A stretch of 64,000 nt of DNA, taken from the NCBI GenBank assembly GCA_963819815.1, contig CAWFXL010000001.1:1024001-1088000 (forward strand), given 5' to 3'. A program made the position numbers and the translations under genes. The notes under the pieces were generated by a model, which saw only the letters and a program-made list of their open reading frames with translations, made no database searches and was not told the origin of the DNA. The stretch is from an uncultured bacterium. Lineage in GTDB: Bacteria > Babelota > Babeliae > Babelales > Babelaceae. Below are positions 1,526 to 11,845 of the stretch, piece after piece (the stretch's first letter is position 1; every line of letters begins with the position of its first letter).

Positions 1526-4435
1526 ATGACTATGACCGCGCACAATAGATTTTTCACATTACTAGTATCTGTTCTCACTATACTGCCTCTTGTAGCTCTT
1601 AATGGCCAATCAGAAGGACCACGTGGGTGGCATCTGGTTAATACTACCGCAACACCAGTGGGTATTGCCTGGTATACCACTAAGACAGAGAGACACAGCA
1701 TCCAGCCCTCAGGTGAAGCAGTACAAAACTCCGAACCGATAATTATAGAGCAAGGGGAGTCCGAATTTATTAAAGCTCCTACCCATGATTCAGAGAATTT
1801 TCTTCAACTTGCTGTAACACAGAGCCCTGCATTGCTTAAACCGAACTTATCTTCCTCTACTAGTGGTATTGATGATAGGTTGGGAATTTTTATGTTTGAT
1901 AAAAAGACCCTTAAACTACTTAAAAAGCCCCTGCTCCAGTACCTTCCTTCAAACCCTAAGCTCTATATCACTCAGCCAGTGGGCTCAACGCAACTAATAC
2001 TCATTCCTAGCCCAAAGCCACTATCCCCTGAAAAACTCTGTGCAGAAGGCTGGTTACTGCGTAATGCAGCAAACCGACCATTGTATGCGGGATGGTACGT
2101 TTCCACATGGGATTCCAAGCAACACCTCTATAGGGAGCCTGCTCTTGGAACAGATCAAACTATTTTTATGCTAGAACCTGGAGAAAACGCACCAATGTGC
2201 CACCCTCGTGAAGTAAGAAATCAGAAGTGGCAACTGTTGATGTCTTTTGACAATGATTCTTTAACTAAAACGGTTGTCTACGATGCTGCAAAAAATCTTC
2301 CTCAGCGGATTGTGAGCAGAGTAAAGGTTGATTTAGGTCCTTATACAACTCGATGGGACATCTATGATCAGAAGGGATCCCCTTCTTTAGTTCCACATAC
2401 GCATCTTTTGCAATTCGTTAATACAACAAATAACCCACTCTACTGCGCTATGTATTATGTAGATTCATCAGGCGCTACCAAATATGGGCCACGTGATTAT
2501 GTAACAGAGATTCTACCACAGTTGAGTTGCGAAGTACCCTATCCCCCTCGCCTCTGGTGGCACACCACTAAGCTTTTGATTGCAAGAGAGGACCAAAAAC
2601 ATTTGCTCAATGAACCCTTTTTAACGCCAAACCAACTTACGAGCCTCCATATAAAAGATTTTCAGAAGAGTAGCTTCACCAATTGGTACATCGAAGCAGC
2701 TTTTGCTATCGAGCCACACAGATTTAACCCTGATTTGCTTCATGTAAGCTCTATCGGAGGCAGTCTTATTCAACGTCTTGCCCGACTTGCTGTTGATATG
2801 GACTCCTTTAAAGGGTCGCGTATTAAGAAATATGAAGAAGCCTTTCTACGCCAAGATCCCCGCTATATGCCTGATCCGGAGATCATCGCGGCAATGGGAC
2901 GCCCTTCAGTACTTACCGATCCTTCGCAAAGGACTATGGAAGAAGAGTTTGTTGTAAGGCGTAGTGAAATAGTACGCAATGCACTGAATAACCTTTTTGG
3001 TGAAGAAGTTATCCCTCAAGGAGCTTATGTTCCCAAAATTGCTATCGTATTTACCGGCGGCGGCTATCGAGCTATGATCGAAACTATTGGGTTTATAGAA
3101 GGTGCGGCCAGTGAACGGGGCGGTAATATTTTTGATTGCTGTACCTATGTAGCTGGACTATCAGGTTCTACCTGGGCCATTAATGGGCTTGTCGCGTCAG
3201 GACTTTCTCCGAGCGGTTTTGCGAAACACCAAAAACACAAAGTTGGTGAAGGCGGCCTGCTGCCACTTAAAACACTTATTAGCAACCTTATTGAACAGAG
3301 TGCTACCTATCCTGAACAGCGCTTCATTGAAAGCAGATATAATAAATTTCATGGACCTATCGGATTATATGGTCATGCCTTAACCCATGCTCTTTTGCAA
3401 GGATTTGAAATCGAAGGACGAGATGCTCATACGATGAAACTATCAGATCTTCGTACCAATTTAGCCAATGCAAAATATCCACTGCCTTTGAGTGTCGCGG
3501 TTGATCCAGGAAACTCTGATAAAGAAAGAGTCTGGTATGAGTTCAGCCCCTATTATTGTGGAACTTTACAAGAGCAAGGAAGCTGGATCGACACAAAGCT
3601 GCTCGGCTGCAGCTTCTATAAGGGCCGCCCTGTTCACATTGTTCCTGAGTATCCTCTTGCTCAGCACTTTGGGATTTGGGGTTCTGGCTTTGCACTCTCT
3701 CCTGAAGATATTGAAAAAGCTTCATCTTTTGGAGGATTTCTTACTCGTTCAATTTCCAATATAAGCAAAGGATTCTCAAAAGCCTATGCGTTACTTTTCT
3801 CTGAACCTTCAGATGACTCGCTGGCTCCTGGAAGAGTAACTGCAGGTACGATACCTAATTATAATTACCAAAGACCAGATGCTCTTGAAGGAATCGCTTC
3901 AAAGCCACTGCTCCACTTCATTGATGCAGGGATAACTATGGAAGGACAAGAGCGGCATAATTTTGGAACGATACCCGCTCTATGGCGCAATGTAGATATG
4001 CTCATTATGTGCGATTGTACAGGTTTCCCTAACGGCAATATGCACTCAGAATACCTATTTGCTGCAGATGAAGAAGCTAAACGACAACGATTACCGTTCC
4101 CTAACCTTACACGAAGCACACGACATGTGGCTACCCTTAAGAATGTAGACAAAGAGATCACTTCAGTATTTGTTGAAGAGAATGCACCCATCGTTGTGTA
4201 TATGCAAGCCAAGAAGAACAGACGGTACAATGGCTATTTAGCAGGAAGACCTGGTCCTTTCATGAATGGTTTTGATCCAGATTCCACCGTTACTGAATTT
4301 ACCTCATATGCTAACTTCAGCTATACGCCGGAGCAGTATGAGGTTCTTCGCGGTCTGACCAAATCTATCTTCATTCAAAGCAAAGAGGCGATAAAATCGG
4401 CCATCGCAAAAGCAGTAGAACGATCGATAAACTAG
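1526..4435 (+). CDS. Exported cPLA2/lysophospholipase-type phospholipase with three N-terminal repeated domains
   Basis: Signal peptide; IAIVFTGGGYRAM oxyanion motif, nucleophile motif GLSGSTW, WYEFSPY, FIDAG catalytic Asp. Confidence 0.85.
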   Translation: MTMTAHNRFFTLLVSVLTILPLVALNGQSEGPRGWHLVNTTATPVGIAWYTTKTERHSIQPSGEAVQNSEPIIIEQGESEFIKAPTHDSENFLQLAVTQSPALLKPNLSSSTSGIDDRLGIFMFDKKTLKLLKKPLLQYLPSNPKLYITQPVGSTQLILIPSPKPLSPEKLCAEGWLLRNAANRPLYAGWYVSTWDSKQHLYREPALGTDQTIFMLEPGENAPMCHPREVRNQKWQLLMSFDNDSLTKTVVYDAAKNLPQRIVSRVKVDLGPYTTRWDIYDQKGSPSLVPHTHLLQFVNTTNNPLYCAMYYVDSSGATKYGPRDYVTEILPQLSCEVPYPPRLWWHTTKLLIAREDQKHLLNEPFLTPNQLTSLHIKDFQKSSFTNWYIEAAFAIEPHRFNPDLLHVSSIGGSLIQRLARLAVDMDSFKGSRIKKYEEAFLRQDPRYMPDPEIIAAMGRPSVLTDPSQRTMEEEFVVRRSEIVRNALNNLFGEEVIPQGAYVPKIAIVFTGGGYRAMIETIGFIEGAASERGGNIFDCCTYVAGLSGSTWAINGLVASGLSPSGFAKHQKHKVGEGGLLPLKTLISNLIEQSATYPEQRFIESRYNKFHGPIGLYGHALTHALLQGFEIEGRDAHTMKLSDLRTNLANAKYPLPLSVAVDPGNSDKERVWYEFSPYYCGTLQEQGSWIDTKLLGCSFYKGRPVHIVPEYPLAQHFGIWGSGFALSPEDIEKASSFGGFLTRSISNISKGFSKAYALLFSEPSDDSLAPGRVTAGTIPNYNYQRPDALEGIASKPLLHFIDAGITMEGQERHNFGTIPALWRNVDMLIMCDCTGFPNGNMHSEYLFAADEEAKRQRLPFPNLTRSTRHVATLKNVDKEITSVFVEENAPIVVYMQAKKNRRYNGYLAGRPGPFMNGFDPDSTVTEFTSYANFSYTPEQYEVLRGLTKSIFIQSKEAIKSAIAKAVERSIN

Positions 4436-4555: not shown

Positions 4556-5941
4556 ATGAAGTACTTCATAAAAATTTTTAGTCTATTGCTCTTATCACAT
4601 GCCCTGCTCAATGCAGAAAGCTGCGTAAAGTGCTGCCCTCCTTTGCCCCCCGAAGACTGGACCTGTCGAGATAGAGCCATCTGGGAACAACCAGTATGTC
4701 CCCCCCCTTCTGGAAGACCTATCAGCTATAATCGCTTCCTTGAAGGAGCGGTAGTCAAGGTAAAGCCCTATGGCTATGTAAAATGGGAATCCTATTGGGA
4801 TACTCGACAGATAGCAGGATTCAGAGATGGCCAAGTGCTCCTGTTTCCACTTCCCGTTCTGCTTGATCCTTTGCGCATAGATATTAATGACCATGGCTTC
4901 TGGCAAATGACAGCGATTGAAACCCGAGTAGGCCTCGCTCTCTATGGCCCTGAATGGCACTGCATGAAAGTTACCGGTCTTATTGAAGCTGATTTTCGGG
5001 GAATTACCGATGTAACCATTGGGGAGTTTAGATTACGACATGCTCTTGGCTGTATTGCATGGGAAAGTGGTTCCTTCCTTTTTGGGCAATGGTGGCACCC
5101 TTTATACATTCTTGAATGTTTTCCACATACGATTTCATATAACATCGGTGCCCCTATGGATCCTCAGGCCCGAGAACCTCAACTCAAGCTTACTCAACGA
5201 TGGAAGTGGTTTGAGCTTATTTTAGCTATAGCTGCCCAAAGAGATTATGCCAGTAACGGCCCCATTGGTATTTCGACAACCTATATCAGTAACTCAGCAA
5301 CTCCAAATCTCCATCTGCAAATGCGAGCTTATGGCAATGACAACAATAATGTCATAGGAGCGGCCGTAGATTATTTGAGGCTCTGTCCACGCATTGAAAG
5401 CCTTACGGGATATAGCGTAGATGAATATATTGGAAGTGTTACCGTCGAAGCATTTGCTGCCTGTAGATACGCTCCTTGGTCATTACGATCAAAAGTCTTC
5501 TGGTCTGAAAATGGTAACGATCAGCTATTAATAAGTGGCTTTGGTGTACGAAGTGTTGAACCTATTACCGACAAGCGTACCTATAGCAATACCGCAGCAG
5601 TCGGCGCCTGGCTCGATTTTTCGTATCTATTTGGCTGCGATGATATAGAGCTCGGATTCTTTACTGGTTGGACCAAAAATCTAGGATCTCGACATCGTCT
5701 CTATATTGATCCCACAACCAAACAGCCGATCATTTATGCGCTTACTGCGTTTGGTCCGAGCCTTGAGTATGTTGCTCGGGTATCTCCTCGTTTTATTATT
5801 AAGAAAGATCCTATTCGCTTTGGCGCAGAGTTTGAGGTAACCCGCGCCGCCTTTGGCACCCTTAACTCCTGCGGTAAAGTAACTCATGGTATTCCTGTAA
5901 CGGGGTATCGTGTGCTGCTAGCAATCTATTATATGTTCTGA
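4556..5941 (+). CDS. Outer-membrane beta-barrel, DcaP-like porin
   Basis: Signal peptide; KPYGYVK, TRVGL, IEADF, FRLRHA, LFGQWW motifs; aromatic C-terminus YYMF. Confidence 0.7.
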   Translation: MKYFIKIFSLLLLSHALLNAESCVKCCPPLPPEDWTCRDRAIWEQPVCPPPSGRPISYNRFLEGAVVKVKPYGYVKWESYWDTRQIAGFRDGQVLLFPLPVLLDPLRIDINDHGFWQMTAIETRVGLALYGPEWHCMKVTGLIEADFRGITDVTIGEFRLRHALGCIAWESGSFLFGQWWHPLYILECFPHTISYNIGAPMDPQAREPQLKLTQRWKWFELILAIAAQRDYASNGPIGISTTYISNSATPNLHLQMRAYGNDNNNVIGAAVDYLRLCPRIESLTGYSVDEYIGSVTVEAFAACRYAPWSLRSKVFWSENGNDQLLISGFGVRSVEPITDKRTYSNTAAVGAWLDFSYLFGCDDIELGFFTGWTKNLGSRHRLYIDPTTKQPIIYALTAFGPSLEYVARVSPRFIIKKDPIRFGAEFEVTRAAFGTLNSCGKVTHGIPVTGYRVLLAIYYMF

Positions 5942-6277: not shown

Positions 6278-6871
6278 ATGAACATGTTTTCTAAAGTAAT
6301 GTCACTTGGGTTACTCGTAAGTCTCTTGGTATCTGTGCCTGCTTTTGCAGGAAAACACGATGAGCGCGATCGTGATGAAAAATGTTGCTATAATAAACAC
6401 AAGCATGACGAAAAATGCTGCAATGATAGACACGACCGTGATGAAAAATGTAGCCTTACAGGTGCTTATACTGCTCAAATGACCAAATCTGGCACTCAAG
6501 ATGATTTTGCTGTTGTTCAATTCAATGACGATGGCACACTGGTAATATCTGATACATTAGGCACCACAAGCCTGGGAGGTACTAATCTCTTTTCTACCAT
6601 ATACACAGGAACTTGGAAATGTGTTGGCAATCGTTGCTTCACATTTTGCGCTACAAGCATATTAGTCATGCCGGCAACACCAAAGAATATCGCATACCGT
6701 ACTAAAGTCTCTGGTACGATTTGCTTCGATCCAACATGCCAAATGGGTACAAGTACCGGTGATTTTACCCTTACTTTTTATGCTATTACGGATCTTACAT
6801 TGAAAAACCCACTTACAACCCCACCTCAATTAGATTTGGGTACTCTTGTTATACAGCGCCTAGCCTGTTAA
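6278..6871 (+). CDS. Exported Cys/His-rich hypothetical protein
   Basis: Signal peptide ending AFA; DEKC occurs three times in a His/Asp-rich segment; beta-rich C-terminal domain; SD AAGGA. Confidence 0.75.
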   Translation: MNMFSKVMSLGLLVSLLVSVPAFAGKHDERDRDEKCCYNKHKHDEKCCNDRHDRDEKCSLTGAYTAQMTKSGTQDDFAVVQFNDDGTLVISDTLGTTSLGGTNLFSTIYTGTWKCVGNRCFTFCATSILVMPATPKNIAYRTKVSGTICFDPTCQMGTSTGDFTLTFYAITDLTLKNPLTTPPQLDLGTLVIQRLAC

Positions 6872-6886
6872 CTAAGTAAAGCATGT

Positions 6887-6916
6887 CGACAGCCAAGAGA
6901 TTTTTCTTGGCTGTCG
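6887..6916 (+). terminator. Stem-loop after the 6278 gene
   Basis: 12-bp stem CGACAGCCAAGA / TCTTGGCTGTCG; no clear U-tract. Confidence 0.55.
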
Positions 6917-7201: not shown

Positions 7202-8362
7202 ATGAAACAAACTTTATTCTTATGCATTTTTACCGCCATACCCCTCGTAGGTGTGAAGGGCATTCATGTTGCTCAACCTATATCTCTTAATAACGTTGCT
7301 CATTTTGAGAGTAAGCGTTGTAAGCAACTGCTTCAAGAAGTAGTTCAGCAGCGCGAAAACAGTGGCTATGCAGGCCGTTTTGTTATGAAGCTCACTCCCT
7401 ACCCGGAAACTACCTTTGTGGTTTGGGGACCTTTAAAAGGATCCTATTCTTCCCTGATGCGCACGCTTAGCTCTATCCAAACGCTTGGTATTATTGATCA
7501 ATATCTAAAGATTGTGCACAAAGATACCTATCTTGTATTCAATGGGGATGCTATCAGCGACTCAGAGACTTCACTTGAAACTCTCATGCTCATCCTAACC
7601 TTAATGAAACTTAATCCTACTCAAGTACTCTATATCAAGGGGGAAGCAGAGCAGGAGCTCCAGTGGCAAAATGATGGCCTTAAAAAGGCGCTCCAGCAAA
7701 AATCATTGTCCTTTCCCGGTCAAAAGTCTTCTATAACTAAACTTATCTCCCGTTTTTTTAATACGTTGCCGCTTGCACTCTATATTACCGGAATAAATCC
7801 TCTTGATGGAGCTCTTCGTATTTCTTACTTTCCACGAACATCACGTGAAATCGATGAAACCCACTGTGGGAAAACTCTTACAAATGCCCTACTTAATGTT
7901 CCTCAGATCTGCTCCTTATCATCTTCAGAAAAAGCTCCTGTACCTATCAAGGCAACAATTACCAGTGAGCAGCGGCTCATGAGCTATCAACAGCATCCGG
8001 GACTTACTCTGGTAGAACCGGATAAAGGATCGGTTACCTGGAGCATTTTTTCAGGACCTACCCCACATTATCAACGAGAGTACCAATTTTTCAGGGACGC
8101 TTTTGCACTCATTAAAACGGGCAAAACGATCGATGAAGCACTGATCGAGCTCTACAGCGCAGATCTTCGTACAGGAGAAAATATTCATCTGGTAGGTTCA
8201 TATGATATTATGACCGGCATCGAAAGAAATCCACGACAACTATCTAAAAAACCAGCTCTCAACATAGACAAGAATATTATGTCGTTGTATACCCAGCTTG
8301 AGTCACTGATAGCACAGGCTACCCAGCTTACTGAGATGCTTATAGAGAGGGGAGCTACATGA
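7202..8362 (+). CDS. Exported metallophosphoesterase (PPP-like) protein with degenerate catalytic motifs
   Basis: Signal peptide; GPLKG (for GDxHG), FNGDAISDS (for GDxVDRG), IKGEAE (for RGNHE), FFNTLPLA, SIFSGPTPHY (SAPNY-like). Confidence 0.7.
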   Translation: MKQTLFLCIFTAIPLVGVKGIHVAQPISLNNVAHFESKRCKQLLQEVVQQRENSGYAGRFVMKLTPYPETTFVVWGPLKGSYSSLMRTLSSIQTLGIIDQYLKIVHKDTYLVFNGDAISDSETSLETLMLILTLMKLNPTQVLYIKGEAEQELQWQNDGLKKALQQKSLSFPGQKSSITKLISRFFNTLPLALYITGINPLDGALRISYFPRTSREIDETHCGKTLTNALLNVPQICSLSSSEKAPVPIKATITSEQRLMSYQQHPGLTLVEPDKGSVTWSIFSGPTPHYQREYQFFRDAFALIKTGKTIDEALIELYSADLRTGENIHLVGSYDIMTGIERNPRQLSKKPALNIDKNIMSLYTQLESLIAQATQLTEMLIERGAT

Positions 8363-10821
8363 AAATGTTCATTGCCATGACCCTTTTGATGAGCCTCGGT
8401 ATGAGCAAGAGCATAGCGGGATTTATCAATCTAGATGAGCAACAGCGCTACGCAGCATCGGTGCCTGAGTTTCCTCAGGAATCTCCCGAATCGGGCTACC
8501 AGAAACTCTACGCCTCACTGACCCCAAGCTGGTTACATAGGACACTTTCACAGATCGGTTTGAGAAAAAAGCCCGCATGGAAACCCTCAGATGCAAACTT
8601 GATCATATCAAGTACCTATGAACTTCTTACTAAAACTTCCTCCAACCCGAAGGTAACACTCACGCTCTTACCAGATTCTGAATGTATCGTTTTTGGTGGC
8701 GTTCGAGGTGCCTTTCATTCGCTTACTCGCGCATTACATGATCTTCAAAAACGAGGAATAATTGACACTACCTATAGGCTCAAACCGGGTGTGTATATGG
8801 TATTTCTTGGCGATACACTCGACTATTCTGCGTATGCTCTTGAAACGCTAAGCCTTATCCTTACTCTGCAGAAAGCAAATACTCGGCAAGTTGTTTTCCT
8901 GGCTGGGCACGTAGAATCAAATCAAACATGGCACAGCTCTGGCTTACACAAAGAGCTTATCTTGAGACTTCCTAACCAAATCGCTGAACTTACTAAAAAG
9001 ATCGATACCATCTTTTCAAAGCTCCCAAGAGAACTCCTCGTTCGTCTCGAAGGCACCTCAGACTCTCTTCTCTTTTCCGCTTTTACAAAAGAGCACGAAC
9101 AAGGAGTATCTGCCATTATAACGAGCGATGAAAAAGCTCCTTCTTACCATGAAGGCCAAGGTCTCTATAAGAAGGTTCCTCAAGAAGGGCCTATTACCTG
9201 GCAAGTGGTCTCCTCCCCCATCAGAGAGTATCGTATGAAGCATAGATTTTTCTATGATGCCTATGCGCTTATACAGCTCTCAACAACTCTTAAGGAAAGT
9301 ATCATTTCACTGTATGCAAGCAAGGGAACTGTTCCTTTCACACTCAGTGCTACCTACAATCTGCTTACCGGAACAGTTCTTACTCGTGGTCGTGCATTCC
9401 CCACCATGCATCATACTCCAAATCCCCTTTCAGCTCAGGAGCGTGCATTACATATTTCTACACTCAAAGAACTGACTGATAACCTGCAAAATGAACTAGC
9501 ATCGCTTACTATACAGATAGACCTACCCCAAAGTGATAGTGCTGCACCGACTATCGAGTTACCACCGCTTATTAAGAAACTGGCTGAGGGTGCTTCCCTC
9601 ACTCCTCAGGAAATGGATGAGGCACTTTCAGACATTGAATTTCTATACAATACCCTCAGCACCGAGATGATACATCTCCGTTCCTTAGCGCAAAAAAATG
9701 GGCTCAAGCTTGCATCACCTACCTCCTCAGACTCCAAGACTACGATCACCCTTGGATCGTCTCTTGATCTTTCAAAGAGCGCTAAAGGGCTGGGAATTCC
9801 CTTCAAAACGGGCATGTCGTTAAAAGTCCATGAGCAAAATCGTGCAGGTGGAATCCATGGTAAGCGAGCACATATTATTTTCCTTGATGACGCTTATCGT
9901 CCCGCACTTGCCGAGAAAAATATTGAAACGTTCCTCTCTGTTGATCATACTCCTTTTATTCTTGCACCAGTAGGCAGCCCAACCCTTGCAGCATCACTTG
10001 ATCTTATTGAACAGAAAAAAATACTTGTCCTGTTTCCACAAAGTGGTTCTCTTCTTTTTAGAAAACCTTTGCTTACCCATGTGATTAACTTCAGAGCCTC
10101 GTTTCATGATGAAGGGCGTCTACTTACCGAGTTTGTCATCGAAAAATATCGATCTAAAAAGTTTGTCTTCTTCTACCAAGATGATGAGTTTGGCACAGGA
10201 GTTCTAGAAGGGGCAAAAGATGCACTCAAAACTATGAAGAATACTCAAGCAACAGAAGTCGGCTACCAAGCAAATACCACGAGCTTCGAATCATTAGCAA
10301 CTAAAATAAAAGAAGCAAATCCCGATGCTATAGGTCTCTTTGCCACAGGTCCTGCCGTGTTACAACTTATTCGGGACCTTGGCGTTGAGTTTCTCGCCAA
10401 CAAGATTCTCTTTGCCGTCTCCTCAGTTGGAGATGCAGTAACCAAAAAAGTCTTACAAGAGCGGGGCATCTCTCTTATTATGGGCCAAGTGGTTCCCGAC
10501 CTAACGACAAGCACCCTACCTATCGTTGTGGAGTATCGCAAGGAACTTGCAGCCCAGGGACTTAAGGAAGATGTATTTGGTCTTGAGGCATATATCAACA
10601 CAAGTCTGACCTTCAATGCGATGAACTCGGTAAGCGAACCGATAACGATGAGTAAGCTGATCGAACATTTTGAGCAGATGAAACAGTATGAGTATAAAGG
10701 GTTAACCCTTACGTTTGATCCCAAGTCCCGTTCATTAGGACAGAATATGTGGATTATTAATAAAAATGGAACTGCGCACGAAATGAAGATAGGAGGTTCT
10801 CATGAAAAAGGTACTCCCTAG
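8359..10821 (+). CDS. Exported PPP-like pseudophosphatase fused to a type I periplasmic binding (LivJ-like) domain
   Basis: N-half GGVRGAFHSL, FLGDTLDY, LAGHVE; C-half NRAGGIHG, LDDAYRP, PVGSPT, FYQDDEFG, GLEAYIN; ATGA overlap with upstream gene. Confidence 0.8.
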   Translation: MKMFIAMTLLMSLGMSKSIAGFINLDEQQRYAASVPEFPQESPESGYQKLYASLTPSWLHRTLSQIGLRKKPAWKPSDANLIISSTYELLTKTSSNPKVTLTLLPDSECIVFGGVRGAFHSLTRALHDLQKRGIIDTTYRLKPGVYMVFLGDTLDYSAYALETLSLILTLQKANTRQVVFLAGHVESNQTWHSSGLHKELILRLPNQIAELTKKIDTIFSKLPRELLVRLEGTSDSLLFSAFTKEHEQGVSAIITSDEKAPSYHEGQGLYKKVPQEGPITWQVVSSPIREYRMKHRFFYDAYALIQLSTTLKESIISLYASKGTVPFTLSATYNLLTGTVLTRGRAFPTMHHTPNPLSAQERALHISTLKELTDNLQNELASLTIQIDLPQSDSAAPTIELPPLIKKLAEGASLTPQEMDEALSDIEFLYNTLSTEMIHLRSLAQKNGLKLASPTSSDSKTTITLGSSLDLSKSAKGLGIPFKTGMSLKVHEQNRAGGIHGKRAHIIFLDDAYRPALAEKNIETFLSVDHTPFILAPVGSPTLAASLDLIEQKKILVLFPQSGSLLFRKPLLTHVINFRASFHDEGRLLTEFVIEKYRSKKFVFFYQDDEFGTGVLEGAKDALKTMKNTQATEVGYQANTTSFESLATKIKEANPDAIGLFATGPAVLQLIRDLGVEFLANKILFAVSSVGDAVTKKVLQERGISLIMGQVVPDLTTSTLPIVVEYRKELAAQGLKEDVFGLEAYINTSLTFNAMNSVSEPITMSKLIEHFEQMKQYEYKGLTLTFDPKSRSLGQNMWIINKNGTAHEMKIGGSHEKGTP

Positions 10822-11845
10822 TTCTAATGGAGTCTCGCTCCATTTTCAGGTGGCGAGTCTTTTCCTGACCTTAGTCATGATCATTTCACTCGTACTTCTT
10901 CAGATAAAGAAGTTCTGCGCCGCAGATACTGCTCCACATATCTCACCGGTAACGCCAAAAAGCTTGCAGCATGGTGCTGTTGCAACACCCACCAAAGTAA
11001 CCGTTGGATTAACGATTACCGATTTTCCTTCATTTGATGTTGCGCGCAACGACTTTGAATTCTCGGGAATAATTTGGTTCTCATTCGATCCTGCATTGGT
11101 AAACTTAAAAACAATTGAAAAATTCAGTTTTGTAAAGGGGGAGATTAAGTACATTTCAGAACCGAGTACTCAGCTTGAAGATGATAGACTCACCGTTCGA
11201 TACCGTATACGAGTCTCCTTTAAAACCAATCTCTACTATGGCTACTTCCCATTTGAAGATCATACGCTCTATCTCATGCTCTCAAATGCCTCAGTAAACC
11301 CTGATGAGGTCATCTTTGAGTCAACCTATGCAAATGTCATTATGGACAACCCATATGTCAATGGATGGGACTACAAGGATCATCAGGTAACAACTGGGTT
11401 TAGTACGGTACCGCTAGGCATCGGTCAAAAAGGAAAAGAAGTTGTCTACCCATCAGTTCTCTTTACCTTCGAGTTTTATCACCATAGTATACGCTATCTT
11501 ATGAGCATACTTTTACCCCTGCTAATCATTTTCCTCATAGATCTTTTTTCGCTCTGCTTTGATCAGCGAAAAGAACGGGACATTTTGGTTACGATGACTA
11601 CGGCAAATATTGCAGCATTGGTCGCCTATCGATTTGTACTTGAATCACTCACACCAAAAGTAGGATATCCTACGATTGCCGATTATTTCTTTTTCCTCTT
11701 TCTGAGCAACACCTTTATGATATTTATGATAAATTGCGTCGGCCCTTACTTAACCCGTCGCCAAAAGAAGATCATCAGTATCGTTGTTCAGGTATTCGTT
11801 GTGCTCACTATCGCTTTCCTACTGAGAACGTGGCTCCCTTGCTAA
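10802..11845 (+). CDS. Prokaryotic pentameric ligand-gated ion channel (GLIC/ELIC-like)
   Basis: PTKVTVGL beta1, Pro-loop YFPFEDHTL, M1 ILLPLLII, M2-M3 loop LTPKVGYPTIAD, four C-terminal TM helices plus one N-terminal hydrophobic segment. Confidence 0.88.
   Translation: MKKVLPSSNGVSLHFQVASLFLTLVMIISLVLLQIKKFCAADTAPHISPVTPKSLQHGAVATPTKVTVGLTITDFPSFDVARNDFEFSGIIWFSFDPALVNLKTIEKFSFVKGEIKYISEPSTQLEDDRLTVRYRIRVSFKTNLYYGYFPFEDHTLYLMLSNASVNPDEVIFESTYANVIMDNPYVNGWDYKDHQVTTGFSTVPLGIGQKGKEVVYPSVLFTFEFYHHSIRYLMSILLPLLIIFLIDLFSLCFDQRKERDILVTMTTANIAALVAYRFVLESLTPKVGYPTIADYFFFLFLSNTFMIFMINCVGPYLTRRQKKIISIVVQVFVVLTIAFLLRTWLPC

Follow-up and report, generated by a model that had tools for sequence, protein, structure and literature searches.

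A divergent pentameric ligand-gated ion channel homologue linked to pseudophosphatase-fold proteins and a periplasmic binding domain in Dependentiae

We analysed a window of 64,000 nt from the genome of an uncultured bacterium of the family Babelaceae (assembly GCA_963819815.1, contig CAWFXL010000001.1, positions 1,024,001 to 1,088,000) and found in it three co-oriented genes, here called g1, g2 and g3, that encode a stand-alone phosphatase-fold protein, a second such domain fused to a periplasmic binding protein (PBP) domain, and a divergent homologue of the pLGICs (pentameric ligand-gated ion channels). The genome (1.64 Mb in 2 contigs, 88% complete) belongs to a host-dependent bacterium of the Dependentiae. 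Both phosphatase-fold domains have lost their catalytic residues; genes of the same three types accompany members of this channel family in many other genomes of the class, and natural proteins exist in which all three parts are joined in a single chain. The locus is a real, conserved variant of the sensor-coupled bacterial pLGIC theme, apparently unpublished. We consider it fairly probable, judging from sequences, predicted structures and genomic context, that the products of g1, g2 and g3 form a sensor complex in the periplasm by which the channel is gated.

In the list of open reading frames g1 occupies positions 7202..8362 of the plus strand (386 aa; an exported stand-alone pseudo-PPP), g2 8359..10821 (+; 820 aa; an exported pseudo-PPP followed by a helical linker and a Peripla_BP_6/LivJ-type domain) and g3 10802..11845 (+; 347 aa; the pLGIC homologue). 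The overlap is 4 nt (ATGA) between g1 and g2 and 20 nt between g2 and g3, and at both junctions a purine-rich Shine-Dalgarno-like motif lies inside the upstream gene, 5-8 nt 5' of the following start. At the g1/g2 junction (8345..8362, +) the motif GAGAGGGGAG is followed by the ATGA stop/start overlap, with the g2 start at 8359; at the g2/g3 junction (10793..10821, +) the motif TAGGAGGT is followed by the g3 ATG at 10802, with the g2 stop at 10819-10821. Translational coupling of g1, g2 and g3 fits these overlaps and motifs. Given also the flanking spacers, 330 nt upstream of g1 and 200 nt downstream of g3, the three genes look like one operon. The upstream spacer opens with an 11-bp hairpin (6887-6916, read from the sequence) located 3' of the stop codon of a 197-aa gene; this hairpin is absent from the output of a terminator scan. 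The window had been described earlier by a model that worked from the letters and the open reading frames (the sequence-only reading); the three genes, their coordinates and the overlaps of 4 and 20 nt that it gave are exact. Its anatomy of the locus was right as far as it went, while a second paralogous locus and a porin gene, both described below, had escaped it.

The g1 product starts with signal-peptide-like residues 1-25 (read from the sequence; residues 1-32 have low confidence in the structural model), followed by a PPP fold at residues ~35-350 and a long C-terminal helix at 355-385. It had no match in Pfam or NCBIfam, and its single-sequence matches to the PDB were faint (rdgC, E-value 0.098). 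The AlphaFold2 (AF2) model of g1 (pLDDT 88.5), used as a Foldseek query against the PDB, had RDGC, PP5, PP2A, calcineurin and PP1 as top hits (prob 1.00, E-value ~1e-10), and a profile of 54 sequences of the PPP-like family (A2) matched BSU1, PP2A, PP5 and PP1 in the PDB at ~1e-8. The AF2 model, the Foldseek hits and the profile all assign to g1 a calcineurin-like alpha/beta sandwich and, along with the signal-peptide-like N-terminus, support its earlier description as an exported PPP-like domain. Pfam Metallophos was matched by 21 of the 54 family members at E-value ≤0.01, g1 not being among them. We also observed a match of g1 (E-value 1.6e-11) to an intact PPP paralogue from the same genome, a protein of 537 aa (L010 5169-6782; G000:C1 ~565-567 kb) carrying all five motifs: GDLHG, GDYIDRG, GNHE, HGG and RAH. 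This paralogue is likely to represent the ancestor type of the dead PPP domains.

To score the loss of catalytic residues, the family was aligned to the intact paralogue and eight catalytic or metal positions were compared in 51 members. A single position out of eight is kept in g1 (motifs GPLKG, GDAISDS and GEAE), as in the N-terminal domain of g2 (GGVRG, GDTLDYS and GHVE). The phosphate-binding Arg of motif II is replaced by Asp in g1 and by Tyr in g2, and neither protein has the set of metal-binding and catalytic motifs (GDxHG, GDxxDRG, GNHE and two later His). None of the 51 members keeps all eight positions; the maximum is six, found in seven sequences. The positions that are conserved in the PPP-like family (LPLA-like, FSxP..Y-like, and G..E of motif III) are structural, not catalytic. 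Because g1 and g2 keep one position in eight each and no relative keeps all of them, both are pseudo-enzymes and not phosphatases; at this locus the label 'pseudophosphatase' is justified. The fold and the structural motifs are common to g1, to the PPP Ser/Thr phosphatases (PP1, PP2A, PP5, calcineurin) and to the intact paralogue; in contrast to these enzymes, the g1 and g2 domains are devoid of metal and catalytic residues, are periplasmic, occur fused to a PBP domain and are linked to an ion channel.

Three parts can be distinguished in g2: the pseudo-PPP domain at residues ~95-400 (nt 8641-9558), a helical linker at ~400-461 and a Peripla_BP_6 domain at 462-800 (nt 9742-10758). The N-terminal domain is paralogous to g1, which matches it at 4e-21 and 2.9e-13. 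The binding domain passes the Pfam gathering score of Peripla_BP_6 (125.3 bits against a cut-off of 31.7), and among solved structures it comes closest to 4kv7 (1.2e-23), probably a binder of Leu/Ile/Val, and to LivJ, 1z15 (2.8e-9). Both results agree with the composition proposed for g2 from the sequence, a paralogous domain joined through a helical linker to a LivJ-type domain. The ligand of g2 is probably amino-acid-like, as judged solely from the LivJ-type similarity. The only two Peripla_BP_6 domains of the genome are those of the PPP-PBP fusions at the two channel loci. A single BPD_transp_2 permease is present; it belongs to a separate ATP-binding cassette (ABC) operon that has a PF04392 binding protein and an ATPase of its own, ~190 kb from the locus in the window and ~39 kb from the second locus. 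No Liv-type permease, that is, no cognate of LivHM type, was found beside either channel locus in this 88% complete genome.

The g3 product has an N-terminal hydrophobic helix (residues 13-35), a periplasmic beta-sandwich (64-227) and the transmembrane (TM) helices M1-M4 (231-344). In its AF2 model (pLDDT 93.2, pTM 0.86) the beta-sandwich is followed by four TM helices, which is the pLGIC fold; Foldseek ranked GLIC first (4.9e-16, prob 1.00), then GluCl, GABA-A, sTeLIC, ELIC and DeCLIC. The g3 sequence matches GLIC and sTeLIC in the PDB at 2.3e-6, and a profile of the 40-member g3 family (A1) matches GLIC at 8.5e-15. The beta6-beta7 loop with its conserved Pro ([FY]-P-x-D) is present: the g3 residues F149-P150-F-E-D-H align with YPFD of GLIC, Pro150 being found in 40/40 relatives and the Phe in 38/40. 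Thus g3 models as a pLGIC, and the GLIC/ELIC hallmarks reported for it earlier were correctly recognized. Curated models did not reach it: no Pfam match was found, the NCBIfam model LGIC_1 gave 25.3 bits against a cut-off of 500, and Neur_chan_LBD was matched by just one of the 40 relatives (E-value 0.009). Of three hidden Markov model searches that had been suggested as checks, the one with Peripla_BP_6 succeeded for g2, while those with Neur_chan_LBD and Metallophos did not, g3 and g1 having no Pfam match.

Common to g3 and to GLIC, ELIC and sTeLIC are the fold, the Pro-loop motif of FPxD type, a short M3-M4 link and the Pro between M2 and M3; g3 differs from them by its low identity (~15-17%, below Pfam and NCBIfam cut-offs), the additional N-terminal hydrophobic helix, a small or polar residue aligned to 9' and the dedicated partner proteins. 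Pore positions were taken from a HMMER alignment of the TM segments to GLIC, which could be off by one residue, and are given here in what we take to be the standard prime numbering. In g3 (residues 260-281) Asp is aligned to the GLIC position -2' and Ala to 9'. In the family, position 9' is Thr in 25 of 40 sequences, 6' is Gly or Ala, 13' is A, G or S, and Phe occupies 16' in 39 of 40; the string Y-R-F-V-I-E at 14'-19' is almost invariant. The 9' residue of pLGICs is usually hydrophobic, and a pore pattern without a hydrophobic 9' residue, as predicted for the g3 family, would be unusual. The Asp that g3 shows at GLIC -2' in this alignment tentatively suggests a flux of cations. Longer channels, of ~550-570 aa, were seen in one family of the class, f18 (L033 8040-9719 and 15385-17058 (-); L034-L037); their extra N-terminal region of ~220 aa has no Pfam match.

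The association of the three gene types is not confined to the window. The g3 family is present in 159 of the 261 genomes of the class, and the A2 profile collected 667 clusters (50% identity) at E-value ≤1e-30 among 1.84 billion representatives. The same genome has a second locus, rearranged and paralogous, on the minus strand ~230 kb away, with the gene order porin-like protein (450 aa), pLGIC (349 aa; identity to g3, 36%), PPP-PBP fusion (764 aa) and stand-alone PPP-like protein (324 aa). We also compared the surroundings of pLGIC matches in 40 further genomes of this class, one locus from each (~20 kb per locus, with domains mapped by phmmer). A PPP-like gene was present in 33 of them, as a PPP-PBP fusion in 26 and, in the other seven, split into the order PBP, pLGIC, PPP-like; in one more locus (L032) two channels carried a PBP domain fused at the C-terminus, and a PPP-like domain was absent. 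Each partner in these loci had one to five PBP domains, and seven were counted in the protein P0014, copies within one protein being 37-59% identical. Copy numbers were matched within loci, e.g. pLGIC-fusion-pLGIC-fusion in L033.

At the level of whole genomes, the best A2 E-values had a bimodal distribution with a gap between 1e-40 and 1e-48. A strong PPP-like match was observed in 128 genomes, all of which (128/128) had a pLGIC, and in none of the 102 genomes without a pLGIC. Weak A2 matches were sampled in five genomes with no pLGIC match: three of the seven loci concerned carried all five intact PPP motifs and two carried most of them, while the remaining two gave no frame passing the filter. 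The conservation of gene neighbourhood, also put forward earlier as a check, was thus confirmed, with the three gene types co-occurring widely.

Several points weigh against the reading of these genes as one sensor complex. A search for sequencing runs returned no RNA run, its single entry being a DNA run that contains 0.11 of the sampled words. The 40 loci are not a random sample, having been selected by hand with a view to family spread and long contigs; the cut for a strong match, E-value ≤1e-45, was set after the gap in the scores had been seen; and related genomes are not independent samples, which is the reason why no statistic is attached to the phyletic counts. Furthermore, in six of the 40 loci the pLGIC stood by itself (in one case at the end of a contig) and 31 of the 159 pLGIC-bearing genomes had no strong PPP-like match; therefore, the channel family can exist alone. 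In one genome (G227) the only pLGIC match lies ~91 kb from a PPP-PBP match.

A further link between the channel and its partners comes from single-chain proteins, namely P0057 and two others that a homologue search with its residues 1-370 brought up. P0057 itself (1113 aa; a single member, on one 11-kb contig) consists of a pLGIC part (residues 21-315; 2e-39 and 32% identity to g3), a Metallophos part (480-606) and a Peripla_BP_6 part (765-1080), and no signal peptide was found at the channel/partner junction. In P0161 (1111 aa; 4 member sequences, 220-kb contig) the A1 profile aligned over 10-340 and the A2 profile over 369-740, both with hhalign probability 100, and PF13458 is present as well. 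The source label of P0161 is that of an alphaproteobacterial metagenome-assembled genome; thus the module may possibly occur in, or have been transferred to, organisms other than Dependentiae. P0162 (1008 aa) is the third fusion candidate. As the C-terminus of a pLGIC is periplasmic, the fusions place the pLGIC, PPP-like and PBP parts in one compartment. The claim that the phosphatase-fold proteins are partners of the channel, made in the sequence-only reading, is strongly supported by gene order, phyletic dependence and the three single-chain fusions, all of which are indirect. One more protein, P0133 (1049 aa, PBP and PPP-like), was tried as a hidden channel fusion and rejected, there being no pLGIC within it.

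In two of the loci, L019 (9226-9234 (-)) and L031 (9011-9028 (-)), the channel gene and the next PPP-PBP gene are in the same frame with a single TGA and 0-1 codons between them, and the pairs appear in the genome scan as open frames of 1118 and 1115 aa. The in-frame TGA could have come about by chance or because a single-chain form was split recently, or it could be read through. Recoding or read-through was set aside, as the downstream genes have starts of their own; in L019 this start precedes a hydrophobic, signal-peptide-like N-terminus.

A gene upstream of g1, at 4556..5941 (+), codes for a putative porin-like outer-membrane protein of 461 aa. It had no Pfam or NCBIfam match; its nearest ESM Atlas clusters are DcaP/OmpL-like (score 0.98) with 16-28% of members carrying DcaP or Porin_2, which we take as a lead only. 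The genome contains exactly two copies of this gene, one beside each pLGIC locus. Among 41 genomes of the window's family a homologue was found in 28, and in at least 15 of these 28, as compared by hand using the best 150 of 274 pLGIC matches, a copy lies ≤1 kb from a pLGIC match. Because of the position of the two copies and this proximity in the family, we extended the module to position 4556; the porin-like protein is its probable fourth component.

The relation between g1 and g2 was considered in a quick tree of the PPP-like domains (SH-aLRT support only, careful search unfinished, midpoint root, the intact paralogue on a long branch). The g1 domain, the N-terminal domain of g2 and both PPP-like domains of the second locus share a clade with 14 rows, all from the window's family (support 96). 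Within it g1 groups with a stand-alone orthologue in another genome, G031 (support 99), and full PPP-PBP fusions stand beside this pair at forks below the starred support level; the second stand-alone type groups with a different fusion. From these groupings it follows that stand-alone adaptors arose at least twice through loss of the PBP domain. In several relatives (L013, L014, L027, L031) each channel is accompanied by a pair of fusions, and this suggests that the partner set comprises two paralogues.

These observations can be arranged into the following scheme. Together, and probably joined by the porin gene upstream of them, g1, g2 and g3 would code for a single envelope module in a bacterium that depends obligately on its host. 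A pentamer of g3 would sit in the inner membrane, its periplasmic domain being served by the secreted dead-PPP partners. The LivJ-type Venus-flytrap domain of g2 would capture a small, probably amino-acid-like solute; the dead PPP domain would act as an adaptor, docking the binding domain on the channel and relaying ligand occupancy to the gate. The g1 product would be another adaptor copy, one whose binding domain has been lost and whose partner is probably g2. Opening of the channel would result in ion flux, tentatively cationic. What we observed are the folds, the lost catalytic residues, the operon structure, the conserved linkage and the natural fusions; from these we deduce physical binding, the class of ligand, the direction of coupling, ion selectivity and the physiological output.

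The same set of proteins could, however, serve uptake and not signalling: the porin, the binding protein and the channel would together provide energy-independent, binding-protein-gated import of some metabolite of the host, for instance an amino acid or a small organic cation, with the pLGIC pore replacing the ABC permease. A porin, a periplasmic binding protein and an inner-membrane pore do mirror a nutrient uptake pathway, the porin gene is found beside both loci and no Liv-type permease is linked to them; besides, divergent PBP domains repeated in tandem 2 to 7 times within one protein (identity 37-59%) resemble a multi-substrate collector. Small or polar residues at the pore-lining positions 6', 9' and 13' across the family point the same way, although the assignment comes from the alignment of TM segments with its possible shift by a residue, and Phe at 16' (39/40) could still form a narrow gate. 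To our knowledge no pLGIC carries metabolites, and this too counts against uptake, which we regard as unlikely. Another explanation is that the periplasmic and membrane proteins belong to one response and are merely co-regulated, with no physical complex between them. It is true that the complex is supported by genomic context only and that lone pLGICs exist; still, co-regulation does not sit well with three independent single-chain fusions and two channel-PBP fusions, with the strict tie of the PPP-like family to the channel (128/128) or with the matched copy numbers within loci such as L033, and we find it very improbable.

The PPP-like domains might have retained some function: they might bind metal or phosphate, or be weak enzymes, and thus process or recognize a phosphorylated periplasmic ligand for the PBP domain or the channel. 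Seven of the 51 scored members keep six of the eight positions, including GNHE and the motif-II Arg, and the passing of Pfam Metallophos by 21 of 54 members is also in line with this. The His residues aligned to HGG and RAH are, on the other hand, retained in only 8 and 2 of the 51 members, respectively, no member keeps the full set of eight, and g1 and g2 themselves keep one position each and have lost the phosphate-binding Arg; residual function of this kind appears highly improbable. The replacement of this Arg by Asp in g1 and Tyr in g2, with one position in eight kept, similarly disfavours the role of phospho-ligand receptor that the sequence-only reading had offered for these domains.

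A wider formulation of the sensor complex, which we put forward tentatively and with less than even confidence, is that with the dead PPP domain we may have, for a bacterial pLGIC, the first auxiliary subunit that is obligatory, a pseudo-enzyme adaptor turning closure of a Venus-flytrap domain (one or several interchangeable domains) into gating. With a dedicated DcaP-like porin it might constitute an envelope-spanning, ABC-free sensing or uptake route, made up of a binding protein and a channel, through which the host-dependent Dependentiae read or tap metabolites of the host.

Bacterial pLGICs fused to, or located in operons with, periplasmic sensor domains of the PBP-I, PBP-II, Cache and MCP-N types were described earlier (Tasneem, Iyer, Jakobsson & Aravind, Genome Biol 2004, PMC549065). 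These systems combine a Pro-loop channel with a type-I periplasmic binding domain and an inferred sensing of small molecules, as here. The differences are that here the PBP domain is usually carried by a separate secreted dead-PPP protein and not by the channel, that it is multiplied up to seven times, that any fusion is at the channel C-terminus, and that a porin gene is linked. DeCLIC (PDB 6v4a, 7q3g; PMC12664993, PMC9897478), which g3 matches by fold, is a bacterial pLGIC modulated by an accessory periplasmic domain; that domain is N-terminal, calcium-binding and neither of phosphatase fold nor a PBP, whereas the partner described here is mostly a detachable protein.

Control of a membrane channel or receptor by a Venus-flytrap domain, as proposed here, has a parallel in ionotropic glutamate receptors with their LIVBP-like amino-terminal domains. 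It has another in MBP-Tar, a binding-protein-dependent chemoreceptor in which a Venus-flytrap domain controls a membrane receptor. Both differ from the present case in that the channel superfamily is unrelated and no pseudo-enzyme adaptor takes part. The link between the NMDA receptor and PBP-I is cited in PMC549065.

The terms 'phosphatase' and 'calcineurin' are absent from the text of PMC549065, as is 'phosphatase' from that of the DeCLIC paper PMC12664993; in the text of Jaiteh et al. 2016 (PMC4795631) none of 'phosphatase', 'TM6', 'Dependentiae', 'periplasmic' and 'operon' occurs. Searches of full-text literature, with few subscription journals covered, returned nothing for Dependentiae combined with 'ligand-gated ion channel', and nothing relevant for a pLGIC with a pseudophosphatase, a calcineurin-like protein or metallophosphatase, or an accessory subunit. 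These results agree with the earlier statement that a link between such channels and the phosphatase fold is undescribed. The new elements are the pseudo-phosphatase adaptor, the detachable and multiplied binding domains, the natural single-chain forms and the linked porin; points added by the window in particular are its arrangement with two adaptors, the presence of the locus in duplicate and the association with the porin at both loci (2/2).

Bacterial pLGICs serve as structural models for human neurotransmitter receptors, while their native ligands and roles are mostly unknown, and we know of no detachable auxiliary subunit described for them. The module would be a natural system that outsources ligand recognition to a modular binding-protein antenna via a pseudo-enzyme adaptor, and its natural single-chain versions are ready for expression. 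It would also show clearly how a PPP phosphatase of eukaryote type has been put to use as a scaffold in the periplasm. For Dependentiae, whose biology inside protists is poorly known, it is among the few conserved envelope sensing or uptake devices that are visible.

Two neighbouring genes, of 197 aa and 247 aa, were considered as members of the module and rejected, no homologue of either having been found in the other 41 loci at E-value ≤1e-3. The 197-aa product, encoded at 6278-6871 (+) between the porin gene and g1, is an exported protein without a family match; towards its N-terminus Cys, His, Asp and Lys are abundant and follow a repeated pattern, CC..KH..EKC. Directly 5' of the porin gene, at 1526-4435 (+), a protein of 969 aa is encoded that has a eukaryote-type cytosolic phospholipase A2/lysophospholipase domain (Pfam PLA2_B, 5.8e-24) and is a candidate host-directed effector. 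Beside the second locus (L009 1427-5638 (+)) we observed a gene for a protein of 1403 aa with dozens of ~40-aa repeats, in which the motif ALIGLGN..Y.D was read from the translation.

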